From positions 1 to 24,982 of IMG/VR virus record IMGVR_UViG_3300029508_000048: 24,982 nt of DNA; one strand, 5' to 3'. This stretch comes from a virus. Lineage: Duplodnaviria; Heunggongvirae; Uroviricota; Caudoviricetes. Below, piece after piece: positions 2,629-24,328 of this stretch. Below the pieces are notes generated by a model, which was not told the origin of the DNA, made no database searches, and saw only the letters and a program-made list of their open reading frames with translations. The translations under genes and the position numbers were made by a program. Each line of letters opens with the position of its first letter. The first letter of the stretch is position 1.

Positions 2629-2974
2629 TCTCTGCTCCTGTTGATACGGAAAGGGACACAGGCACACCGTTATTCCGCCGCCCGGTCAGCTCCACCACCA
2701 TAGAACCGTCAAAGTTGCTGTTGATAGTGATGGAATCCAGCGTCAGCCGTGGCTCCCAGCGACTCAGCGCCACATACACTGCCGACATGACCTGCAGGCG
2801 TAATGCCGGATTTTGTGGCTGATCTATTAAAACCGACAGGAGGGAACCATATTCCCGGCGGGCAATGCGGCTACCCTGCGGTGTCAGCAGAATGTCCCGC
2901 ACCGACTGGCGCAGATGATCAATATCAGTAATGACTTTGCCGCTGGTATTGTTCATCCCGCTATAAAGCGTCAT
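2615..2974 (-). CDS. W: Baseplate protein W (gp25/GPW family)
   Basis: 119-aa minus ORF between V and J, small GPW-like baseplate wedge protein by size, position and sequence character. Overlaps the J start. Confidence 0.8.
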   Translation of the reverse strand: MTLYSGMNNTSGKVITDIDHLRQSVRDILLTPQGSRIARREYGSLLSVLIDQPQNPALRLQVMSAVYVALSRWEPRLTLDSITINSNFDGSMVVELTGRRNNGVPVSLSVSTGAENGSD

Positions 2975-3549
2975 ACCGGGCCTCCGGTTGTATCGCCGCC
3001 TTTCAGGACGCCAGTATGCTGATGCGCATCAACCACAATCCCGTTAGAACTCATCGCACCGCCGCCCTGGGTAACGCCACCATTGATCACCACTTCGCTG
3101 TTAATACGCGTGCGGTCAGCCTCCAGTACAAACTCACTGGTTTTCATGGTGATGTTGTCAGCGGCCTCAATGACCATTGATTTGATGCCCCTGACATACC
3201 AGCGCCCGGTGGCGGGTTCGTATTCAAACCAGCCACCGTCAGGATGTTCTATCACGCAGGCGTCCGCCGACGTCGACGGTGGCGCGAACTGATTCGAATA
3301 GATGGCGGGTAACGCAAAGGCGGTTTCCAGATTGCCGCCCAGACTCAGCAGCACCACCTGCTCACCTTCCGATGGTCGCCACCATGTGCGGGCATTACCC
3401 GCGCGCAGCGTCAGCCAGTTAATCCAGTTGGTTTCAAGGTCGCCCGTTTTCACCCGACAAAGCCAGTTTTCCCGGTCCACTTCGGTGACTACACCTATGC
3501 GGATCAGATTGGTGATAAGGCGCATGATTTCTGTGAGTTGTGAGTTCAT
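2971..3549 (-). CDS. V: Baseplate spike / tail protein V (P2 gpV-like)
   Basis: 192-aa minus ORF; N-terminus MNSQLTEIMRLITNLIRIGVV resembles the remembered P2 gpV N-terminus. First gene of the V-W-J-I-H operon. Confidence 0.85.
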   Translation of the reverse strand: MNSQLTEIMRLITNLIRIGVVTEVDRENWLCRVKTGDLETNWINWLTLRAGNARTWWRPSEGEQVVLLSLGGNLETAFALPAIYSNQFAPPSTSADACVIEHPDGGWFEYEPATGRWYVRGIKSMVIEAADNITMKTSEFVLEADRTRINSEVVINGGVTQGGGAMSSNGIVVDAHQHTGVLKGGDTTGGPV

Positions 3550-3630: not shown

Positions 3631-4500
3631 ATGAATAAATTCCAAATTAGTCCAAATTTAAAACCTGAAACAAAACTGTGGCGCTATATGTCTCTTGATA
3701 AATTCATCGATATATTATCCAGAGAAGAGCTATATTTTTCTCCTCTTAGTTCTTACAGCAATAGCGATCCATATGAGGGGTTATTACCTAAGGTTGCCTT
3801 AAATGCGTGGGCAAGCATCGTCAAAAGTAAGTTTAATGATATACAATCATATTTCAATGATACCGTAGAGCGTATCAGGGAAAACGAACTATTAGGCAGA
3901 ATCTCTAATGAAAAAGCCGAAACAGAAATCACCAAGTTGCAAACAATGATGGATACACAATTACCAAAAATAGAATCTATCTATTTTAAGATTTTAAACT
4001 CCGTCACAGTGAATTGTTGGCATCAAAATGAACATGAGTCAGAAGGAATGTGGCGTTTGTATTCAGATGCTAACAAAGGAATAGCAATTCAAACATCAAT
4101 ATCACGCTTGATAGATTCACTTCAATCTGAAGAGATTATCTCTATTAGTGAAGTAAAATACATTGATTATTTCGATGAAAAACTAACATCTGAAGATTGC
4201 GTCGTGAACGGAAGAATGGTTCCTTTTTTAAAACGAAAAGCTTTTTCACATGAAAATGAAGTACGTTTATCCATAACACCAAAAATTATTAATAGCGACA
4301 TCGAAAACTATACTCCCAAGGGGATAAGAATAAAAACAGATCCTGTAAAGCTAATCGAAAAAATATACATTTCTCCATATGCTTCACAACCTTACCCCAG
4401 TGCTGTAGCAGCAATATTAGAAAAATTCAATATTGATAATAACAAACTTGTTATCTCCAACTTGCTTACGATTGATCATAATTTATTGAGATTGTTTTGA
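3631..4500 (+). CDS. Hypothetical protein, AT-rich moron in reverse orientation inside the late tail cluster (position of P2 orf30); possible abortive-infection or defence protein
   Basis: 289-aa ORF with AT-rich codon usage unlike the flanking late genes, opposite strand, own promoter. N-terminal motif LWRYMSLDKFIDILSREELYFSP...SDPYEG. No family assigned. Confidence 0.7.
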   Translation: MNKFQISPNLKPETKLWRYMSLDKFIDILSREELYFSPLSSYSNSDPYEGLLPKVALNAWASIVKSKFNDIQSYFNDTVERIRENELLGRISNEKAETEITKLQTMMDTQLPKIESIYFKILNSVTVNCWHQNEHESEGMWRLYSDANKGIAIQTSISRLIDSLQSEEIISISEVKYIDYFDEKLTSEDCVVNGRMVPFLKRKAFSHENEVRLSITPKIINSDIENYTPKGIRIKTDPVKLIEKIYISPYASQPYPSAVAAILEKFNIDNNKLVISNLLTIDHNLLRLF

Positions 4501-4505
4501 TTAGC

Positions 4506-4955
4506 TTAGCTATCAACCAAAGCACGTAATAATACGTCTTGCGATAATGACAAAATTTTATCGTTATAACCTAACAACTGCCGCTCTGCATAACGCACCT
4601 CCGGTCCCTTACGACTGACGCGATCTCGCAGGCCGTAATGGTGAACGCGGGCAATGCGCTGCAGCTTGCCTTCAAACTGTACACTGGCAGAGTCGGCGCT
4701 GGCGGCAGTTTTCAGGTATTTTGTCGTGCGCAGCTTTGCAAACATCTGACGTTTGATGCGCCCCTTCTTGCTGCGTGCTGTTACCCTGCGCGGTTCATAA
4801 CTGCTGCCATCTGGATTGCGCTGCATCCTGATATTCTGCTGCTGTGTCCGGCGCAGTTCCTGCGCCAGCTGGCGCATCATGCGGCTTCTCGTGGCTGGTT
4901 CCAGATTCGCCAGCAAGGCACTCAGCCAGTCGTCCACCTTCTGCAGTTCAGCCAC
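4506..4955 (-). CDS. S: Tail completion protein S (P2 gpS-like)
   Basis: 149-aa minus ORF, GTG start at 4955 with GGTG upstream; basic C-terminal half; downstream of R. Confidence 0.8.
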   Translation of the reverse strand: MAELQKVDDWLSALLANLEPATRSRMMRQLAQELRRTQQQNIRMQRNPDGSSYEPRRVTARSKKGRIKRQMFAKLRTTKYLKTAASADSASVQFEGKLQRIARVHHYGLRDRVSRKGPEVRYAERQLLGYNDKILSLSQDVLLRALVDS

Positions 4956-10458: not shown

Positions 10459-12225
10459 ATGAACACCACACTGACACCCGCAGATCTCGATCCCCGTCGG
10501 CAGGCTATGCTGCTGTACTTTCAGGGATACCGCGTCGCCCGCATTGCTGAAATGCTGGGCGAGAAAGTTGCAACCATTCACAGCTGGAAAAAACGCGACA
10601 AGTGGGGTGACTATGGGCCGCTGGATCAGATGCAGCTCACCACCGCCGCACGCTACTGCCAGCTCATTATGAAGGAGCACAAAGAAGGGAAAGATTTCAA
10701 AGAAATTGACCTGCTGGCACGCCAGTCTGAGCGCCACGCGCGGATCGGCAAGTTTAACAATGGCGGCAACGAAGCCGACTTAAACCCTAACGTTGCCAAC
10801 CGCAACAAAGGCCCACGTCGTCAGCCGGAAAAGAATGTTTTCACCGATGAACAGATTGAGAAGCTGGAAGAAATTTTCCATTCCTCCATGTTCAACTACC
10901 AGCGCCACTGGTGGGAAGCCGGAAAAACCAACCGCATCCGCAACCTGCTGAAGTCACGCCAGATCGGCGCGACCTTTTACTTTGCCCGTGAAGCCCTGAT
11001 TGACGCCCTGCTTACCGGACGTAACCAGATTTTCCTTTCTGCCAGTAAGGCTCAGGCCCACGTCTTTAAACAATACATCATCGACTTCGCCAAAGAAGTC
11101 GAGGTGGAGCTAAAAGGCGATCCGATGGTGCTTCCTAACGGAGCCACGCTTTACTTCCTCGGCACCAATGCCCGCACGGCCCAGAGTTATCACGGCAACC
11201 TGTATCTGGATGAATATTTCTGGATACCGAAATTTCAGGAGCTGCGCAAAGTGGCTTCCGGGATGGCTATTCACAAGAAATGGCGACAAACCTATTTTTC
11301 CACGCCATCCAGCCTGACCCACAGTGCTTATCCGTTCTGGTCCGGTGCGCTGTTCAACCGTGGACGCAACAAAGCTGACAAGGTGGACATCGACCTGTCC
11401 CACATCAATCTGGCCCCCGGCCTGCTGTGCGCAGACGGGCAATACCGCCAGATAGTCACCGTGGAAGATGCGGTGCGCGGCGGCTGTAACCTGTTCGACC
11501 TCGACCAGCTGCGCATGGAGTACAGCCCGGACGAATACCAGAACCTGCTGATGTGCGAGTTTGTGGACGATCTCGCGTCCGTGTTCCCGCTCAGCGAACT
11601 GCAGGCGTGCATGGTGGACAGTTGGGAAGTCTGGACCGACTTTCATGCACTGGCCCTGCGCCCGTTTGGCTGGCGCGAGGTGTGGATCGGTTATGACCCG
11701 GCAAAAGGTACGCAGAACGGTGACAGTGCCGGGTGCGTGGTGGTGGCTCCGCCAGCTGTGCCGGGCGGTAAGTTCCGTATTCTTGAGCGTCACCAGTGGC
11801 GCGGGATGGACTTCCGCGCCCAGGCGGACGCCATCAAAAAACTGACCGAACAGTACAACGTGACATACATCGGCATCGACTCAACCGGCGTTGGTCACGG
11901 GGTTTACGAGAACGTGAAAGCGTTCTTTCCTGCCGTCCGGGAGTTTGTCTACAACCCCAACGTTAAAAACGCCCTGGTACTCAAGGCCTACGACATTATC
12001 AGCCACCGCCGTCTGGAGTTTGACGCCGGGCACACCGACATTGCGCAGTCATTCATGGCGATCCGTCGCGCCACCACCGCCAGCGGCAACCGCCCGACCT
12101 ATGAAGCCAGCCGCAGCGAAGAAGCCAGCCATGCCGATCTGGCCTGGGCAACAATGCACGCACTGTTTAACGAACCGCTGCAGGGCGAGTCCGCCAATAC
12201 CAGCAATATTGTGGAGATTTTTTGA
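10459..12225 (+). CDS. P: Terminase ATPase (large) subunit P
   Basis: 588-aa ORF, size and divergent position relative to O as in P2; 4-bp ATGA overlap with Q. Confidence 0.9.
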   Translation: MNTTLTPADLDPRRQAMLLYFQGYRVARIAEMLGEKVATIHSWKKRDKWGDYGPLDQMQLTTAARYCQLIMKEHKEGKDFKEIDLLARQSERHARIGKFNNGGNEADLNPNVANRNKGPRRQPEKNVFTDEQIEKLEEIFHSSMFNYQRHWWEAGKTNRIRNLLKSRQIGATFYFAREALIDALLTGRNQIFLSASKAQAHVFKQYIIDFAKEVEVELKGDPMVLPNGATLYFLGTNARTAQSYHGNLYLDEYFWIPKFQELRKVASGMAIHKKWRQTYFSTPSSLTHSAYPFWSGALFNRGRNKADKVDIDLSHINLAPGLLCADGQYRQIVTVEDAVRGGCNLFDLDQLRMEYSPDEYQNLLMCEFVDDLASVFPLSELQACMVDSWEVWTDFHALALRPFGWREVWIGYDPAKGTQNGDSAGCVVVAPPAVPGGKFRILERHQWRGMDFRAQADAIKKLTEQYNVTYIGIDSTGVGHGVYENVKAFFPAVREFVYNPNVKNALVLKAYDIISHRRLEFDAGHTDIAQSFMAIRRATTASGNRPTYEASRSEEASHADLAWATMHALFNEPLQGESANTSNIVEIF

Positions 12226-13256
12226 TGGGAAAGAGTAAGAAAAACCGCGCAGCGGCGATGAATCAGATCCAGCATAAAAACCAGACTTCAGCCGAAGCAT
12301 TCAGCTTCGGCGATCCCGTTCCGGTTCTGGACCGCCGTGAACTGCTGGACTATGTGGAATGCGTACAGACAGATCGCTGGTATGAGCCGCCAGTGAGTTT
12401 TGACGGACTGGCACGAACATTCCGCGCAGCCGTACACCACAGTTCACCGATTGCAGTGAAATGCAACATTCTGACCAGCACCTACATCCCTCACCCGCTG
12501 CTCAGCCAGCAGGCTTTTTCACGTTTTGTGCAGGACTATCTGGTATTTGGTAACGCCTACCTGGAGAAACGCACGAACCGGTTCGGTGAAGTTATCGCCC
12601 TTGAGCCTGCTCTGGCAAAATACACCCGACGCGGGTTAGACCTGGATACCTACTGGTTTGTGCAATACGGTATGATCACCCAGCCATATCAGTTCACGAA
12701 AGGCAGCATCTTTCATCTGATGGAACCGGACATCAACCAGGAAATCTACGGCCTGCCCGGTTATCTTTCTGCTATTCCATCCGCCCTGCTCAACGAGTCT
12801 GCCACGCTGTTCCGCCGCAAGTATTACATTAACGGCAGTCATGCAGGCTTCATCATGTATATGACCGACGCCGCGCAGAACCAGGAGGATGTAAACAACC
12901 TCCGCAACGCGATGAAAAGTGCCAAAGGTCCTGGTAACTTCCGTAACCTATTTATGTACTCGCCAAACGGCAAAAAGGACGGGCTTCAGATCATCCCGTT
13001 GTCAGAAGTCGCGGCGAAGGATGAGTTTTTGAATATCAAGAACGTCAGCCGTGATGACATGATGGCGGCGCACCGTGTACCGCCACAAATGATGGGTATT
13101 ATGCCGAATAATGTTGGGGGGTTTGGGGATGTGGAGAAGGCAAGTAATGTATTTGTTCGTAACGAACTTATCCCCTTACAAAAACGTATAGAACAATTAA
13201 ATCAATGGATAGGAAACACAATTATTAATTTTTTACCATATTCTCTCCAAAGTTAA
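12222..13256 (+). CDS. Q: Portal protein Q
   Basis: 344-aa ORF translationally coupled to P; last about 55 codons switch to AT-rich usage. Confidence 0.9.
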   Translation: MMGKSKKNRAAAMNQIQHKNQTSAEAFSFGDPVPVLDRRELLDYVECVQTDRWYEPPVSFDGLARTFRAAVHHSSPIAVKCNILTSTYIPHPLLSQQAFSRFVQDYLVFGNAYLEKRTNRFGEVIALEPALAKYTRRGLDLDTYWFVQYGMITQPYQFTKGSIFHLMEPDINQEIYGLPGYLSAIPSALLNESATLFRRKYYINGSHAGFIMYMTDAAQNQEDVNNLRNAMKSAKGPGNFRNLFMYSPNGKKDGLQIIPLSEVAAKDEFLNIKNVSRDDMMAAHRVPPQMMGIMPNNVGGFGDVEKASNVFVRNELIPLQKRIEQLNQWIGNTIINFLPYSLQS

Positions 13257-13268
13257 AAAATAGCATAT

Positions 13269-13291
13269 GGGTGCATAATGTTTATGCACCC
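13269..13291. terminator. Hairpin between the convergent genes Q and the ThsB-like gene (putative bidirectional terminator)
   Basis: Perfect 9-bp inverted repeat GGGTGCATA/TATGCACCC with 5-nt loop, followed by TCTTATT on the plus strand. Confidence 0.5.
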
Positions 13292-13296
13292 TCTTA

Positions 13297-13914
13297 TTAC
13301 CAGTTAAAAATTGATGAGCTGCGAATTGCAGGAACATCCGATGGATTTCGTTTAGCAGCTGGTTCCATCAACTTACGCTTGTTAAATGCCTGATCAATAT
13401 AATACTCAGGATTTTTAATAAAGACAGAGTATTTTACCAATGCACAATATACGTCAGAGTCATTATAATGGGGAACTGTTTTTTCATAAACATGATTCTT
13501 TCTAACCAGATAAGGCAAATAATAATCATATCCCCAACCTGGCGTTCTTAGACTTATAGAACATCCGCATGATGGATCTGCACATACTGCAGGAGTAAAC
13601 ACACTATCGTAAATTTCATCTCTGATAACACCAATTAGACCATTATAGTTTTCTCCCCAGAGTGATGCTTGAATTTCAGAGTTTACAAATGGACGATTTT
13701 TGGTTTCCGTTCCAATAAGAACGACAGTAACCGTTGAGTCTTTTAAAAAATCCTCACGAATAGTCCTCATTATTGTTTCATCAGTGTTAGTTGTACTAAT
13801 GTCACCATCACTTACCGACTTATCAATAAACGATTCTCCTCCGAATAAATCAATAATCTCATCTTTGAGATCTTGTTCGTTAGCATGATGATAACTAAGA
13901 AACGTCTTATGCAT
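13297..13914 (-). CDS. TIR-like protein, ThsB-like (DUF1863-type TIR-like domain), candidate NAD-consuming sensor of a defence cassette
   Basis: 205-aa AT-rich ORF. N-terminal KTFLSYHHANEQD, then TVTVVLIGTETKNRPFVNSEIQAS with a Glu near residue 80, resembling remembered ThsB/TIR motifs (F-S-Y-H...D strand, VLIG..T, catalytic E). Start ATG overlaps the upstream stop (TAATG); GGAG RBS. Confidence 0.6.
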   Translation of the reverse strand: MHKTFLSYHHANEQDLKDEIIDLFGGESFIDKSVSDGDISTTNTDETIMRTIREDFLKDSTVTVVLIGTETKNRPFVNSEIQASLWGENYNGLIGVIRDEIYDSVFTPAVCADPSCGCSISLRTPGWGYDYYLPYLVRKNHVYEKTVPHYNDSDVYCALVKYSVFIKNPEYYIDQAFNKRKLMEPAAKRNPSDVPAIRSSSIFNW

Positions 13915-14645
13915 TATTCACTCCATTTATCAACATTTATATCAAACTCTTTGACTACCTTATCATTGAAGAAATCGTTTACTTCTTTAAAACCTTCCAA
14001 TACTTGACTAAAATGATAATAATGCTTTTGTATAGTACTTATAGGGGTTAAATGATACGGCAATGATATAAATTCGCCGTTAGGGTCTCTATCCTTTGTG
14101 GTCACTTTATCATTATCTGAAACATATTTATGCCATCTCCGATAATTATTTTGATGCTTTGTTAAAAAAGAGTTTAACGTTTTCAAAATTTCATTTGAAA
14201 GTAAATACAGTTTTTTATCTCTTTTTTTCTTCACATCTAGTAATTTCATTTCATCTCTAATGAATTTATAGCACTCATAATATGAGTTTAAAACTTCTTC
14301 AATTGAGTCATAATTCGGATCAAATTTAAATAATGTTCGCTTCGTATCCAGATAATTTTTTACGCTCTTTTTAAAAAGAAGATCAGACTTATTTAGTAAA
14401 ATATTAATACCACCAAAACTAAGTTGCTCTAATCTCAATGAATATCTTTGATGAAATGCACCGACCAGCAAGATATAAGCAACTAAAAATAGTATTAATA
14501 CTGATAGAAAAGCACGAATTATGTTTACATTTGACATGAAATTAACTATAAACCACCATTTTTCAAACGGTGAAAACGGAATGCACCCCATGATAATAAG
14601 TAGAAGAACAAAGATACAACCCCATAAAACCCACAATCTGTACAT
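13914..14645 (-). CDS. Membrane protein with two N-terminal TM helices and an unassigned soluble domain of about 180 aa; candidate effector partner of the TIR-like protein
   Basis: Track ORF starts at TTG 14690. Preferred start is ATG 14645 (MYRLWVLWGCIFVLLLIIMGCI...) with AGGA 8 nt upstream. Two hydrophobic helices then a K/N/Y-rich domain. Very AT-rich. Translationally coupled to the downstream TIR-like gene. Confidence 0.65.
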   Translation of the reverse strand: MYRLWVLWGCIFVLLLIIMGCIPFSPFEKWWFIVNFMSNVNIIRAFLSVLILFLVAYILLVGAFHQRYSLRLEQLSFGGINILLNKSDLLFKKSVKNYLDTKRTLFKFDPNYDSIEEVLNSYYECYKFIRDEMKLLDVKKKRDKKLYLLSNEILKTLNSFLTKHQNNYRRWHKYVSDNDKVTTKDRDPNGEFISLPYHLTPISTIQKHYYHFSQVLEGFKEVNDFFNDKVVKEFDINVDKWSE

Positions 14646-14667
14646 AAGAAAGATCCTTTTTCTTTTT

Positions 14668-14695
14668 ATAATACTGCAACTACACCTCAAGTCAA
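14668..14695 (-). promoter_or_regulatory. Sigma70-like promoter of the membrane-protein/TIR-like operon
   Basis: Minus strand TTGACT (plus 14690-14695), 16-bp spacer, TATTAT (plus 14668-14673), about 20 bp upstream of ATG 14645. Confidence 0.45.
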
Positions 14696-14700
14696 AACCC

Positions 14701-14760
14701 TCTTCTGATATTACCCTCTACTACAGTAACCCATCACATGACCTCCGACTTATCAGAAGA
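14701..14760. repeat. Perfect 10-bp inverted repeat pair TCTTCTGATA ... TATCAGAAGA separated by 40 bp
   Basis: Read directly at 14701-14710 and 14751-14760, just upstream of the cassette promoter and next to the cos-like motif. Confidence 0.7.
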
Positions 14761-14794
14761 CTAGCCAAACTTTCTCAATCAAATCAGGTTGCGC

Positions 14795-14989: not shown

Positions 14990-15667
14990 CTAGAACGTGA
15001 CAGCCTTGTCAAAGCCAGAAATAATTGTATAAGAAATAGACGAGTTATCAGCCTTGTTCACTTTGAACTTGGCACCTTTGTAAGCGATAACATCACTTCC
15101 CTTAGAATCTACAGAAAAATCTGTTGTAAATGCTGCACGAGCCATATCGTTTGCAAATTCACGATAGGTGAACTTCATTACACCGCCTGCATTTCCATTA
15201 TATTCGATAGTCTTAACCAATGAATTACTCACTCGACACAGCCCATCAGGAACACGTTTGATAGAAATTTCTGATGCAGTATAAGAAGTGCCATTTGGCG
15301 GTGATATCTCATTTTTTGCAGCATCGTAACTAACATAATCAACATAGTTACCGATTTGCCCATAGAGATTTTTTAACGCAACAGCTTGAGGGTTATGATA
15401 ATTGCGGTAAATTCCATTCCCCTCACTGCAATATGTACCAGCAGCGATAGAAGACAATGCACCATTAGCCGCACCAAGTTCTAGTACGTCCGTTTTAAAT
15501 CCAGTAGCAGATGTGATAATGGGATCGCCCATGTAGGCGGTAGCACTTTGCCCAATAGCTGGCTTCACCACTTCAATAGCAGTGATATTTCGGTTAGAAG
15601 CATGTGGCACGCAACCAGTTAGGATTACAGCAAGAGATATTGGTAACGCTACATTATTAATTTTCAT
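14990..15667 (-). CDS. Lipoprotein of unknown function (cargo gene in the cos-proximal right-arm region; candidate surface/exclusion factor)
   Basis: Start at ATG 15667 gives MKINNVALPISLAVILTGC, a signal peptide with lipobox L-T-G-C. Mature part is Gly/Ser/Asn/Tyr-rich. GC lower than the backbone by eye. Confidence 0.7.
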   Translation of the reverse strand: MKINNVALPISLAVILTGCVPHASNRNITAIEVVKPAIGQSATAYMGDPIITSATGFKTDVLELGAANGALSSIAAGTYCSEGNGIYRNYHNPQAVALKNLYGQIGNYVDYVSYDAAKNEISPPNGTSYTASEISIKRVPDGLCRVSNSLVKTIEYNGNAGGVMKFTYREFANDMARAAFTTDFSVDSKGSDVIAYKGAKFKVNKADNSSISYTIISGFDKAVTF

Positions 15668-15690
15668 TTTTAGCCTATTATTCTTTTCTT

Positions 15691-15726
15691 GACAAAAAAC
15701 AAGGCGATATCTGATTGACATCGCCT
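15691..15726 (-). terminator. Putative terminator after the DinI-like gene
   Basis: Minus strand AGGCGAT-(11 nt)-ATCGCCT hairpin followed by TGTTTTTTG. Confidence 0.4.
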
Positions 15727-16730: not shown

Positions 16731-16815
16731 CAAGGGGACAGTTATTGCCACGAGTCCAAGGGGACAGTTATTGCCACGAGTCCAAGGGGACAGTTATTGC
16801 CACGAGTCCAAGGGG
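16731..16815. repeat. Tandem direct repeat, 3 copies of 26 bp plus a partial fourth, at the 3' end of gene A
   Basis: CAAGGGGACAGTTATTGCCACGAGTC at 16731-16756, 16757-16782, 16783-16808, then CAAGGGG at 16809-16815. Confidence 0.9.
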
Positions 16816-18859
16816 CGCAAGCGCCCTGGTCGGCTGCCGCCTCCTGAACGTCAACGGCCTTACGGGCCTTTTTCCACTTCATCGCGTGCGTGCAAATCTT
16901 GCCCTCTATAATCGGGGACCAGATGCCATAGATACGGATACCGTGATCGCCGTAAGCGCTCGGTTCGTCGTTAAGCTCATAAGCCGTGCGGACAAGGTGA
17001 TGTTTGCGGGGAACCAGTACACCGCCCTGCTTCATGATGTAAGTGGCAAAGCAACCCGCATCTGCAGCTGCCAGTACCGCATCCAGACGCGGATTATCCA
17101 GTACCGGTGCACCCGCTTTGCGTTCGCCCTGCACTCTCGCCGCCTGACCAGCCAGCAAGCGCAGCTCACGGTATGCCTGACGCCCCGGGATACCAAAGAA
17201 ACGGAATTGCTGGACACGGTGCAGTGACGCCCAGGCACAGACATGCTCGGCGCTGTCACGCAATGATCTGCCGGTTTCTTTGCTGATTTCTTTAGCCAGC
17301 CCGCGCCCGTCGATGTTCTTACTGATGTATTTGGCGATGTAGCTGGTCGGTGTACCCTTGCGCGGGTTGATTAGCTCGGACTTGAAGCGCGGGCCGGTAT
17401 TGGTGCCCAGTTCCTCGCGGTCTTCACGGATGGCGAACTTACGCAGCAGCGCGGTGATGGAACGACGGTCTTTTTTGCGCATAAAGCACAGAAGATGCCA
17501 GTGCACGGTGCCGTCATGGTGCGGCTCTGCAACGCGGACGCCGTACCAGCGCAATCCGGCCTTGTGCATGGCCTTGCGGAAAGCGGCGAACGTATCAACC
17601 AGATAATCACTGCTCTGCCGGACAGTGGCACTGGTCCACTTCGGATTAGGTCTGCCGTTGTTGAGGGTTGCGTGGAAGCGTGACGGGCAGGTGATGGTAT
17701 AGAACACCGCGCAGTCTCCGCGCATTTCCGCTATCAGTTCCAGCCCCTTAACACAGGTCATCATTTCATTACGGCGGTGTGCCGGGTTACTGTTGCTGGC
17801 GTTCACTACATCTTCCATGTCCAGCGTGTCGCCGTCTTCATTGACCAGCTCATGCGAGCGGAAGAACTCCAACGATTTGCGACGCTGCTCGCGTTTGTGT
17901 ATCACGGCTTCATAACTGACATACGGGGACGCTTTCTTGTTGACCAGACAGACGGCGCGCATCTGCTCCTCCCGCCACTCGCAGCGCATCTGCCACAATT
18001 TGCGATACCACCAGTCCGCGCACAGCATGCGCGCCAGCGACGGTGGGATCAGTTCATAAGGCACTGGCTTGCGACGGCGCTTTTTGCGGCGCAACTTCTC
18101 AAAGGCAGGCGGAATGACCTCAAGGCGCATGGCTTCTGCAGCAACCCTTTCCCACGCCTGGCGGATTTCTTCTGGTTTAACATCGTCACTGACAAACAGA
18201 TCACCGCAAGCCGCATCAAGACACATGCTCATATGTGCCGCAACCAGCGTGGAAAGGCGCTTGACCTGATCCTGATTCATTTCAGGAAGTACCAGCAATC
18301 CCTCCAGCCCGTCCTGGCTCGCCATGAATCGGAAAGATGCAGACACCTGGCTGTCACGCACTCGCTCCAGCCGCTCAAAACAAGGCCTGATTGTTTCGCG
18401 CAGATAACGGGAATAAGCTTTAGCCCTGCCTAGGCTATTGAAGTATTTAATCCGCTCTAACAGAGGCTTGCTGATATGGGCAGGCATGGCGCTTACATCG
18501 GCAATAATCACCAAATCGGGATTAACGCGCTGCTGCTCGCGGGCCATTCTGGCATGGCTAATCAGCCGATCCTGCTCTATTTCACGCTGGACAGGATCGC
18601 GGGATTCATTGAAGAAATAACGTTCCCACACCTCATCACTCAGCGCCTCACGGCGCAGATGCTCCTGCTCGTTATCTGCAGCGTACAGAGTGATGAGGTT
18701 TGAAAGCGCAGACTCAGGCGCAAATTCCGCCGGGTCCAAATACGGGTTAACCGCTTTTTTTGGGGTATTCCATGGAAAGGCCACGGCGGTCACAATCGGA
18801 CCGCCTTTATCTTTTAGTAGCTCAGACATCACTGGAAGACTCCAAAGCTCACAAAGCAC
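16742..18859 (-). CDS. A: Replication initiation protein A (rolling-circle endonuclease, P2/186 gpA-like)
   Basis: 705-aa ORF containing the YIAKYISK active-site tyrosine motif typical of gpA/phiX174-A initiators. True start may be a few codons in (MSELLKDKG). Confidence 0.9.
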
Positions 18860-21196: not shown

Positions 21197-21321
21197 GATG
21201 CAACATTCCTCGTTTAGCAATGATTAATCAGGATGAATACTGATCGTTTGTATTTTGTGAACACGATAAACATACGATCACATCATGAAATCGTCAAGAT
21301 AAAAGTTCACCTGGAGTGACC
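21197..21321. promoter_or_regulatory. Immunity switch region between the apl/cox-like gene and cI
   Basis: 125-bp AT-rich intergenic region between divergent regulator genes; 7-bp inverted repeat TGATCGT (21241-21247) / ACGATCA (21274-21280). Confidence 0.5.
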
Positions 21322-21888
21322 ATGAATTTGGAAAAAGGCGGCCGTGGTGCCATAGAGCGTATGGTTGAAGCCTATGGCTTCAAGACAAGACAAGCTTTGT
21401 GCGACCATTTAGGGATTTCAAAGAGTACTTTGGCGACACGCTATATGCGCGACTCCTTCCCTGCGGAATGGGTTATTCAGTGCGCCTTAGAGACAGGTAC
21501 GTCATTGAGCTGGCTGACTAATGGCTACGGAATCAAAGAGGGTTCACAAAATGAAAACACCAAAGAACTTCCGCTAAAAATTCTCTATGATGGTGAACTT
21601 TGTCCTGAAGGGTCTTATGTTTTTGATGTAAATTTTCTACCTAAAGCTCTAAAAAATCCGATGGTTGTTGTTGTTGATAGTTCCAAATACATTTGTGATA
21701 TTGATTATGATGATGTCCGTGATGGAAAATGGATTGTTAATATTGATGGTGAAATATCAATGAGAACAATTACACGCTTGCCTGGCAGGCGCCTTCATGT
21801 GGAAGGTGGTATATCTCCTTTCGAATGCGCGTTAGAAGATATAATAATGATCGCAAAAATCGTGATGGCATGTCTTGAATATAAATAA
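21322..21888 (+). CDS. cI: CI immunity repressor (186 CI-type)
   Basis: ATG 21322 with GGAG 5 nt upstream (track starts at GTG 21316). N-terminal HTH-like region (LCDHLGISKSTLATRYMRDSFPAEW), C-terminal domain, about 190 aa as recalled for 186 CI. Confidence 0.8.
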   Translation: MNLEKGGRGAIERMVEAYGFKTRQALCDHLGISKSTLATRYMRDSFPAEWVIQCALETGTSLSWLTNGYGIKEGSQNENTKELPLKILYDGELCPEGSYVFDVNFLPKALKNPMVVVVDSSKYICDIDYDDVRDGKWIVNIDGEISMRTITRLPGRRLHVEGGISPFECALEDIIMIAKIVMACLEYK

Positions 21889-23275: not shown

Positions 23276-24328
23276 ATGGCAGTACGAAAACTCGACACAG
23301 GTAAATGGATATGCGAATGCTACCCCGCAGGTCGCAACGGACGCCGCATGCGTAGGCAATTCGCCACTAAAGGCGAGGCTCTGGCTTTCGAACGTCACAC
23401 TATGGAAGAAACAGAAGCAAAACCCTGGCTAGGCGAATCGGTAGACCGTCGGACTCTAAAAGACGTCGTTGAACTCTGGTTCAAGCTGCACGGCAAATCT
23501 CTGACTGCTGGCGAGCATGTTTACGACAAGCTGATCCTGATGGTCGATGCTCTCGGAAATCCCCTCGCCACTGATTTAACATCCAAAATGTTCGCGCACT
23601 ATCGCGATAAACGCCTGACAGGTGAAATCTACTTTAGCGAAAAATGGAAGAAAGGAGCCAGCCCGGTAACTATCAATCTTGAGCAAAGCTATATGAGCGG
23701 AGTGTTTAGCGAGTTGGCACGACTTGGAGAATGGACTGCACCAAACCCACTGGAGAACATGCGCAAATTCACCATCGCAGAAAAGGAGATGGCCTGGCTG
23801 ACTCATGAACAAATCACTGAGCTTTTGTGCGACTGCAAACGCCAAAGCCCCCTGCTCGCTCTGGTTGTCAAAATCTGTCTGAGTACCGGTGCCCGCTGGC
23901 GCGAAGCTGTAAATCTGACTCGTTCTCAGGTTACAAAATACCGGATCACATTTGTCAGGACTAAGGGCAAAAAGAACCGCAGCATTCCGATCAGCAAAGA
24001 GTTGTATGAGGAAATTATTGCCCTGGACGGCTTCAAGTTCTTTACTGACTGCTACTTCCAGTTTTTATCTGTGATGGAGAAAACTTCTATCGTGCTGCCG
24101 CGCGGTCAGCTTACCCACGTTCTGCGCCATACGTTTGCAGCACACTTTATGATGTCAGGCGGTAACATCCTTGCCCTACAGAAAATCCTTGGTCACCACG
24201 ACATAAAAATGACCATGCGCTATGCTCACCTAGCCCCTGATCACCTTGAAACAGCGCTGCGCTTTAACCCATTGGCAACCCTGCCAAATGGCGACAAAGT
24301 GGCGGCAGCGGTTGGCATTGCACCGTAA
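23276..24328 (+). CDS. int: Tyrosine integrase (P2/186 Int family)
   Basis: 350-aa ORF with C-terminal catalytic signature ...HVLRHTFAAHF...HHDIKMTMRYAHL (H-x-x-R ... Y); last prophage gene before the host flank. Confidence 0.9.
   Translation: MAVRKLDTGKWICECYPAGRNGRRMRRQFATKGEALAFERHTMEETEAKPWLGESVDRRTLKDVVELWFKLHGKSLTAGEHVYDKLILMVDALGNPLATDLTSKMFAHYRDKRLTGEIYFSEKWKKGASPVTINLEQSYMSGVFSELARLGEWTAPNPLENMRKFTIAEKEMAWLTHEQITELLCDCKRQSPLLALVVKICLSTGARWREAVNLTRSQVTKYRITFVRTKGKKNRSIPISKELYEEIIALDGFKFFTDCYFQFLSVMEKTSIVLPRGQLTHVLRHTFAAHFMMSGGNILALQKILGHHDIKMTMRYAHLAPDHLETALRFNPLATLPNGDKVAAAVGIAP

Follow-up and report, generated by a model that had tools for sequence, protein, structure and literature searches.

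Type VI Thoeris is an anti-phage defence system made up of ThsB, a TIR-domain protein, and an effector, ThsG. A gene pair of Escherichia coli ACN001, described as 'TIR + DUF6650 and TM' (TM, transmembrane), was assigned to this type by Yirmiya et al. (bioRxiv 10.64898/2025.12.03.692087, Table S2), who record defence in E. coli MG1655 (Defense = Yes) and name T7 as the trigger, and a clone of the ACN001 allele under its native promoter gave defence in the initial plaque screen of the same preprint. Two further type VI systems treated there, one of E. coli S1 and the other of a Gammaproteobacteria scaffold, both defend E. coli, and the scaffold system responds to 2' cyclic ADP-ribose (2'cADPR). 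The present paper describes a cassette of two genes, thsG and thsB, in a stretch of 24,982 nucleotides (IMG/VR record IMGVR_UViG_3300029508_000048, positions 1 to 24,982), which is called the window hereafter and is a P2/186-like E. coli prophage integrated beside rcdA. This cassette is very probably a type VI Thoeris system, carried as cargo in a hotspot of the prophage and protecting the lysogen and the prophage from other phages.

The same preprint gives most of what is known about the signalling of type VI. Three TIRs produced 2'cADPR, and only after infection. Added 2'cADPR, and not 3'cADPR or cADPR, caused ThsG-dependent growth arrest of cells carrying the system, so that growth arrest is on record for a relative of the window system; such a response to 2'cADPR was shown for two effectors, neither of them named as that of ACN001. 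In addition, the sponges Tad1 and MoTad2 overcame type VI defence, and XopQ, a 2'cADPR-cleaving enzyme, abolished it. In the authors' AlphaFold3 (AF3) models six ThsG protomers form a tube, with positively charged pockets where the protomers meet, and breach of the membrane by the TM-bearing ThsG is their hypothesis.

Near-identity to the ACN001 system

The identification is carried mainly by the ACN001 locus. The TIR sequence given in Table S1 of the preprint for IMG 2638504641 is exactly that of the ACN001 chromosomal gene when the locus is translated, and the window cassette is 99.1% identical in DNA to the ACN001 chromosome. ThsB of the window is identical to ThsB of ACN001 at 203 of 205 positions (substitutions S79T and W127L), and ThsG is identical to the ACN001 effector at 238 of 243 (G9S, C21S, N41S, N178H and T204I), none of the substitutions in either protein falling at an invariant position of its family. 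The two loci are also alike in gene pair, gene order, overlap of the genes, promoter region and site beside a P2-like portal gene, and differ in that the portal and tape-measure genes of the ACN001 prophage are truncated whereas the window prophage looks intact. The cassette is placed in type VI because of this near-identity to a tested member, and not because of a Pfam label.

The original prediction, made from the sequence alone, had taken the two genes for a Thoeris-like pair, effector then TIR, and had considered that the effector might be a divergent or undescribed variant. The first of these claims is borne out by the 98-99% identical ACN001 allele, which was shown to defend as type VI. 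The second holds in that the effector is neither SIR2-SLOG nor Macro, but it is not undescribed: the system is already known, type VI having been named and the near-identical allele validated in December 2025. None of the findings by which the prediction was to be overturned applies: the TIR protein has a profile match, the cassette is accessory among prophages with like flanks, and protection against phage is on record for the near-identical allele. With the type named, such an allele validated and the insertion site a published hotspot, the locus has limited value as a discovery. However, as a natural and apparently intact prophage-borne type VI Thoeris it suits the study of how a temperate phage carries an abortive-infection system unharmed in its lytic cycle. 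The window TIR may be among the 32 TIR clusters of E. coli that were tested by Wang et al. 2024 (PMC11350192), and no mention of the accessions WP_085334246 and WP_089602251 was found in the papers searched.

The S1 and Gammaproteobacteria-scaffold systems resemble the window cassette in having a TM effector followed by a ThsB TIR, in TIR cluster 2741407742. In DNA the S1 cassette shares about 66% identity with that of the window, and it stands in an integrase island, not in a prophage, and the scaffold TIR is 39% identical to the window ThsB.

The ACN001 locus (NZ_CP007442.1, 859245-872748) is a prophage remnant in which truncated portal and tape-measure genes have become fused and the Thoeris cassette is intact. 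An intact cassette in a decayed prophage suggests selection for the cargo after decay of the phage.

ThsB, ThsG and their families

The 205-amino acid (aa) protein matches Pfam PF08937, ThsB_TIR, at 1e-14 (55.2 bits against a cut-off of 21.2), and several ThsB models of PADLOC, with ThsB at 6.5e-12. A profile made of ThsB and six relatives matched the PDB entries 9vyl (6.5e-7) and 6lhy and 9b7d (about 1e-5), all of which are solved ThsB/TIR structures, 6lhy and 9b7d being Bacillus cereus ThsB and 9vyl being TIR1. These matches confirm the ThsB-type TIR which had been proposed from the motifs FLSYHH, VVLIGTET and NSEI, and the three motifs are present in the translation. The Glu of NSEI, E80, is invariant in seven relatives, and in the alignment it stands (within NSEIQ) against the Glu of VRYEIMKS in B. 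cereus ThsB (6lhy/9b7d). That residue, E85, is said to have been found catalytic by Ofir and colleagues in 2021, and E80 is the putative catalytic Glu of the window ThsB.

The C-terminal half of ThsB (residues about 105-160) contains C111, C116, C118 and C157 together with H149, which are conserved in relatives from enterobacteria and Oceanobacillus. A C..C.C motif similar to that of ThsB is present in 9vyl, the solved structure of TIR1. This Cys-containing half may be a metal-binding or sensing module. The TIR-domain sequence listed for the Gammaproteobacteria-scaffold TIR leaves the Cys region uncovered, and the full-length protein may yet contain such a region.

ThsG is strongly hydrophobic in two segments, which span approximately residues 3-25 and 40-65. 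An AlphaFold2 (AF2) monomer model made with 45 homologues (mean predicted local distance difference test, pLDDT, 84.8) consists of two TM helices and a confident all-helical bundle with one beta-hairpin at residues 87-243. Because basic residues follow TM2 directly (HQRYSLRLEQ), the C-terminal domain would be cytoplasmic by the positive-inside rule. Residues invariant in the alignments of the soluble domain are K102, R103, D113, Q165, N166, R169, R170, W171, Q206 and Y209. Such basic and polar residues would suit the binding of a diphosphate nucleotide, and K102, R103, R169 and R170 are compatible with the basic pockets between protomers in the AF3 prediction. The linker from TM2 to the soluble domain has a highly conserved G78-G79-x-N81. 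Residues 70-81 have the lowest AF2 confidence (pLDDT below 50), yet they hold the invariant G78, G79 and N81, and the linker may become ordered only when ThsG oligomerises or is activated.

Searches with ThsG gave no significant Pfam or PADLOC match, the best being MRJP at E = 0.017, under its cut-off, and its profile found chance matches alone in the PDB (E of at least 0.35). With PF20355 (DUF6650), hmmscan at thresholds from E <= 0.01 to E <= 10 found no match in 22 family members including ThsG, in six further relatives or in 66 distant relatives, the six including all four with precomputed matches. Precomputed PF20355.5 matches are recorded for four of 66 family clusters (P0026, P0050, P0063 and P0065), P0050 being graded weak. 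Either the model in the Pfam copy used is narrower, or the precomputed matches are marginal. At this locus the annotation resources of 2023-2025 (PADLOC v2, Pfam) call no more than an orphan ThsB, and so type VI Thoeris is under-annotated.

The ThsG family is small: a search with the single sequence found 39 clusters and a profile search 66, mostly of Enterobacterales with a Bacillales branch in addition, and a HMMER profile of ThsG gave 280 matches at E <= 1e-3 among 1.84 billion representatives. Second-tier relatives, of 200-340 aa, have in common the motifs T-R-K, S-W-Y, LN..LRPHLT..QA.FR.W and PQEIQ; their homology rests on these motifs and on HMMER E-values of 1e-17 to 1e-9 over the 1.84 billion proteins. 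In every context examined thsG is followed immediately by a ThsB_TIR gene, the two overlapping or standing 1-2 nt apart, and the pairs occur in unrelated contexts of two phyla. The pair adjoins a type I restriction subunit gene in Oceanobacillus, lies between gpA and portal gene of a P2-like prophage in Serratia, is on a mobile element with a resolvase and insertion sequence (IS) context in Klebsiella, and adjoins a KwaB-like gene in the integrase island of E. coli S1. In E. coli UK_Dog_Liverpool (NZ_CP031653.1, 2415-6318) a 66%-identical thsG-thsB has two other TIR-domain genes and a hypothetical gene directly beside it, an arrangement which may represent one composite TIR locus or a pair of neighbouring TIR systems. 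The phage collection contained neither a DNA match to the cassette nor a tblastn match to ThsG, and the sole matches of ThsB there were TIR genes in phages of Streptococcus and Enterococcus (32-38% identity); a search of genome contigs with a Bacillus type VI TIR gave weak Vibrio TIR matches alone.

Proposed signalling and the alternatives to it

In the mechanism proposed for the cassette, thsG and thsB would be transcribed from a promoter of their own and coupled in translation through a TAATG overlap, which is seen in the DNA. Infection would activate ThsB, which would use Glu80 to convert NAD+ to a cyclic ADP-ribose signal, 2'cADPR as reported for type VI. The signal would then bind the cytoplasmic helical domain of ThsG, in a pocket predicted to include K102, R103, Q165, N166, R169, R170, W171 and Q206, and the activated ThsG, held by its two TM helices, would arrest growth, probably by breach of the membrane, and so abort the infection.

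Several points weigh against this interpretation. Defence was shown for the ACN001 allele and is extended to the window allele by protein identity of 98-99%, the source of the identification is a preprint, and the DUF6650 label of ThsG comes from the annotation of Yirmiya et al., the present Pfam scans giving no match. Furthermore, two of the five type VI TIRs tested in that preprint were without detectable 2'cADPR and are not named in its text, the experiments on 2'cADPR toxicity and XopQ were done with metagenomic Gammaproteobacteria and Bacillus systems and not with ACN001, and the manner in which ThsG causes arrest is at the stage of hypothesis.

Some of these points bear on an alternative in which the ACN001/S1-type branch has the same architecture but signals with a molecule other than 2'cADPR, that is, a functionally distinct Thoeris filed under type VI. 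Those mechanistic experiments for which the systems are named were done with the Gammaproteobacteria-scaffold and Bacillus-scaffold ones, and the window-type ThsB is rather distant from the former, as its 39% identity indicates; the conserved Cys-containing half of ThsB lies outside the listed domain sequence of the scaffold TIR, and Pfam DUF6650 detects the effector family at its limit or not at all. On the other hand, the ACN001, S1 and scaffold TIRs all fall in one TIR cluster, ACN001 need not be one of the two 2'cADPR-negative TIRs, and the S1 and ACN001 TIRs were on native promoters (plasmid) and not on pBAD, low yield being an equally good explanation of a negative. This alternative is judged unlikely, and it is likewise a tentative suggestion that the ACN001/S1 branch is one of the two negatives and uses a TIR-derived signal not yet identified. 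If it were true, the ThsG branch might sense a new nucleotide and the Cys module of ThsB might be a phage-sensing or metal-binding element. The room left for novelty at this locus lies in the signal of the ACN001/S1 branch.

A second alternative reverses the roles of the two proteins: the TIR protein would be a toxic NADase effector and the membrane protein its sensor or anchor, and the cassette would be an abortive-infection module and not a signalling Thoeris. Many bacterial TIR domains are NAD+-depleting effectors, and the limitations section of the preprint (bioRxiv 10.64898/2025.12.03.692087) allows this for unverified types. However, the best Pfam and PADLOC matches of the window protein are ThsB signalling TIRs, the toxicity of added 2'cADPR in type VI runs through ThsG, and invariant basic and polar residues in the soluble domain, as found in the ThsG family, are expected of a ligand receptor, all of which makes the reversal of roles very improbable.

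Type II Thoeris (ThsC, formerly ThsA, with ThsB) is also similar to the cassette, in that both are effector/TIR pairs with N-terminal TM helices, here two, for which membrane damage is proposed. The sensor of type II is a Macro domain and its signal is histidine-ADP-ribose (His-ADPR), whereas the sensor in the window is a helical bundle of unknown fold family and the signal reported for type VI is 2'cADPR. A divergent TM-Macro effector sensing His-ADPR would therefore have to be supposed, but searches at E up to 10 found no Macro match in the window effector or its 21 relatives, the AF2 bundle with its single beta-hairpin is not the alpha/beta fold of Macro, and the new TIRs including those of type VI were without detectable His-ADPR (same preprint), so that the chance of a type II system is slight indeed. 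Type I Thoeris, with its SIR2-SLOG ThsA, was rejected as well, as ThsG has no SIR2 or SLOG match in Pfam and no ThsA match in PADLOC. The effector thus agrees with the original prediction, which had seen in it two N-terminal TM helices and none of the SIR2, SLOG and Macro signatures.

The P2 hotspot, distribution and other genes of the window

The cos-proximal interval between gpA and gpQ is the main defence hotspot of P2-like phages according to Rousset et al. 2022 (PMC9122126) and a 2026 study in Nucleic Acids Research (NAR), and the type VI cassette lies in it, between genes Q and A beside a cos-like site. Strain GPEC1189 is 100% identical to the window across the region compared. The features of the window, as obtained from its open reading frames (ORFs), the annotation of GPEC1189 and the scans described here, are collected in Table 1.

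Table 1. Features of the window (positions in nucleotides; GC, guanine + cytosine).
Feature	Position	Strand	Description and basis
Baseplate gene V	2971-3549	-	
DUF2971 protein gene	3631-4500	+	289 aa
Virion morphogenesis gene	4506-4955	-	
Terminase gene P	10459-12225	+	
Portal gene Q	12222-13256	+	Left boundary of hotspot; RefSeq annotation of the identical GPEC1189 locus and ORF list
Accessory insert	13257-14788		AT-rich, about 1.5 kb, in the cos-to-Q slot; GC content and ends of homology
Hairpin	13269-13291		Perfect 10-bp stem between the convergent stops of Q (13256) and thsB; terminator scan on + strand
thsB	13297-13914	-	205 aa, ThsB-type TIR; proposed infection sensor and signal synthase
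thsG	13914-14645	-	243 aa, two N-terminal TM helices and helical domain; annotated 'DUF6650 and TM' by Yirmiya et al.
Candidate promoter	14695-14668	-	Sigma-70-like, TTGACT-16-TATTAT; 10/12 consensus match
cos-like 19-mer GGCGTGGCGGGGATACGAG	14816-14798	-	20/26 positions match P2 cosL and the next 7 bases
ORF of 243 aa	14990-15721	-	RefSeq form 225 aa; on the gene A side of cos
Gene A	16742-18859	-	Right boundary of hotspot
CI repressor gene	21316-21888		
ORF of 418 aa	21935-23191	+	
Integrase gene	23276-24328		

Two coupled minus-strand genes in an AT-rich block had been described from the sequence, and this description stands: base 13914 is common to thsB and thsG in a TAATG stop/start, and the GC content is 0.26-0.37 across 13150-14650 against 0.50-0.60 in Q/P and gene A. 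Read from a TTG, the effector ORF (13914-14690, minus strand) would encode 258 aa. Translation of thsG almost certainly begins at the ATG at 14645 (243 aa), because the TTG lies upstream of the point, 14668, where the -10 hexamer ends, because AGGA stands 8 nt before the ATG, and because all homologues and RefSeq start there. The sigma-70-like promoter and the hairpin beside Q, which had also been described earlier, were both found again. The consensus match is suggestive of a promoter of the cassette, but it is plausible rather than proven because such matches are common in AT-rich DNA, the region having 15 promoter-like matches against 8.7 +/- 3.2 in shuffles. The hairpin is in the position equivalent to the P2 terminator tQ, a T-run begins on the minus strand 8 nt past its stem, and it likely functions in both directions and terminates both Q and thsB.

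The right edge of the insert is put at about 14788 because homology to Fels-2-type phages stops there, and on the left other P2-like homology stops at the Q stop. Between cos and the Q terminator there is about 1.5 kb here and about 140 bp in P2. The original prediction had remarked on so much foreign DNA as notable, but the placement is not unusual, the interval being a known hotspot and Fels-2 and vB_EcoM-813R9 having other cargo in the same cos-to-Q slot. The cos-like motif matches P2 cosL in the orientation expected relative to Q, but no match at three or fewer mismatches was found to a P2/186 cos 19-mer, and the site is called cos-like, by position and the 20/26 match.

Anti-phage cargo of this kind is known from other P2-like phages. 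Phage AC1 (Rousset et al. 2022, PMC9122126) has in the same gpA-gpQ hotspot a TIR-based system with membrane proteins which protects the lysogen; it has three genes and the window cassette two, and the two systems are likened here by description. The old and tin genes of P2 itself are, like the window cassette, accessory anti-phage cargo between A and Q beside cos, although the proteins are unrelated and the sides of cos differ: old and tin are towards A, and the window cassette, like the cargo of Fels-2 and 813R9, is towards Q.

A query consisting of the 3' end of Q, the cassette and cos was compared with 5426 complete E. coli genomes. Its flanks matched in 1286 of these and the full query in 42 (about 0.8% of the complete genomes), always as one contiguous piece, so the cassette is accessory cargo and not a packaging function; many of the genomes with the cassette come from poultry and avian pathogenic E. 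coli (APEC) strains. That the genes serve packaging, lysis or morphogenesis of the phage, as their place directly between the portal gene and cos might suggest, is hardly credible in view of this count, of the different cargo which other prophages hold there, of the foreign base composition, of the occurrence of the same pair outside prophages, and of its retention in the ACN001 remnant with a truncated portal gene. An apparent plasmid copy, p13TMH22-1 (NZ_CP019257.1, 36 kb), was rejected as an episomal phage, as it has P2-like genes with many frameshifts together with the chromosomal potFGHI, rimK and nfsA. Probably a piece of chromosome that was mis-assembled or mis-assigned, it is not to be counted.

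Three other genes of the window may be mentioned. The 243-aa ORF at 14990-15721 matched nothing in Pfam or PADLOC. DNA across its 3' end aligns with Fels-2 DNA adjoining the hypothetical gene STM2726, likewise of 243 aa, a likeness of DNA and not one drawn from comparison of the proteins. The DUF2971 gene (Pfam, 1.1e-7) lies between the baseplate and virion morphogenesis genes on the strand opposite to theirs, and matches the PADLOC candidate defence family PDC-S31 (2e-24). GPEC1189 has this gene as well, and it is a candidate for a second defence cargo, in the tail-gene cluster. The 418-aa ORF, between the CI repressor and integrase genes, has a sub-threshold Swt1-like HEPN match (5.5e-4) and a PADLOC match to PDC-M34B (4.4e-7), and GPEC1189 has at this position only a small gene of the YdcA family. 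This ORF is a candidate for a third gene of cargo or defence, placed in the integrase-proximal hotspot to which the 2026 NAR study drew attention.

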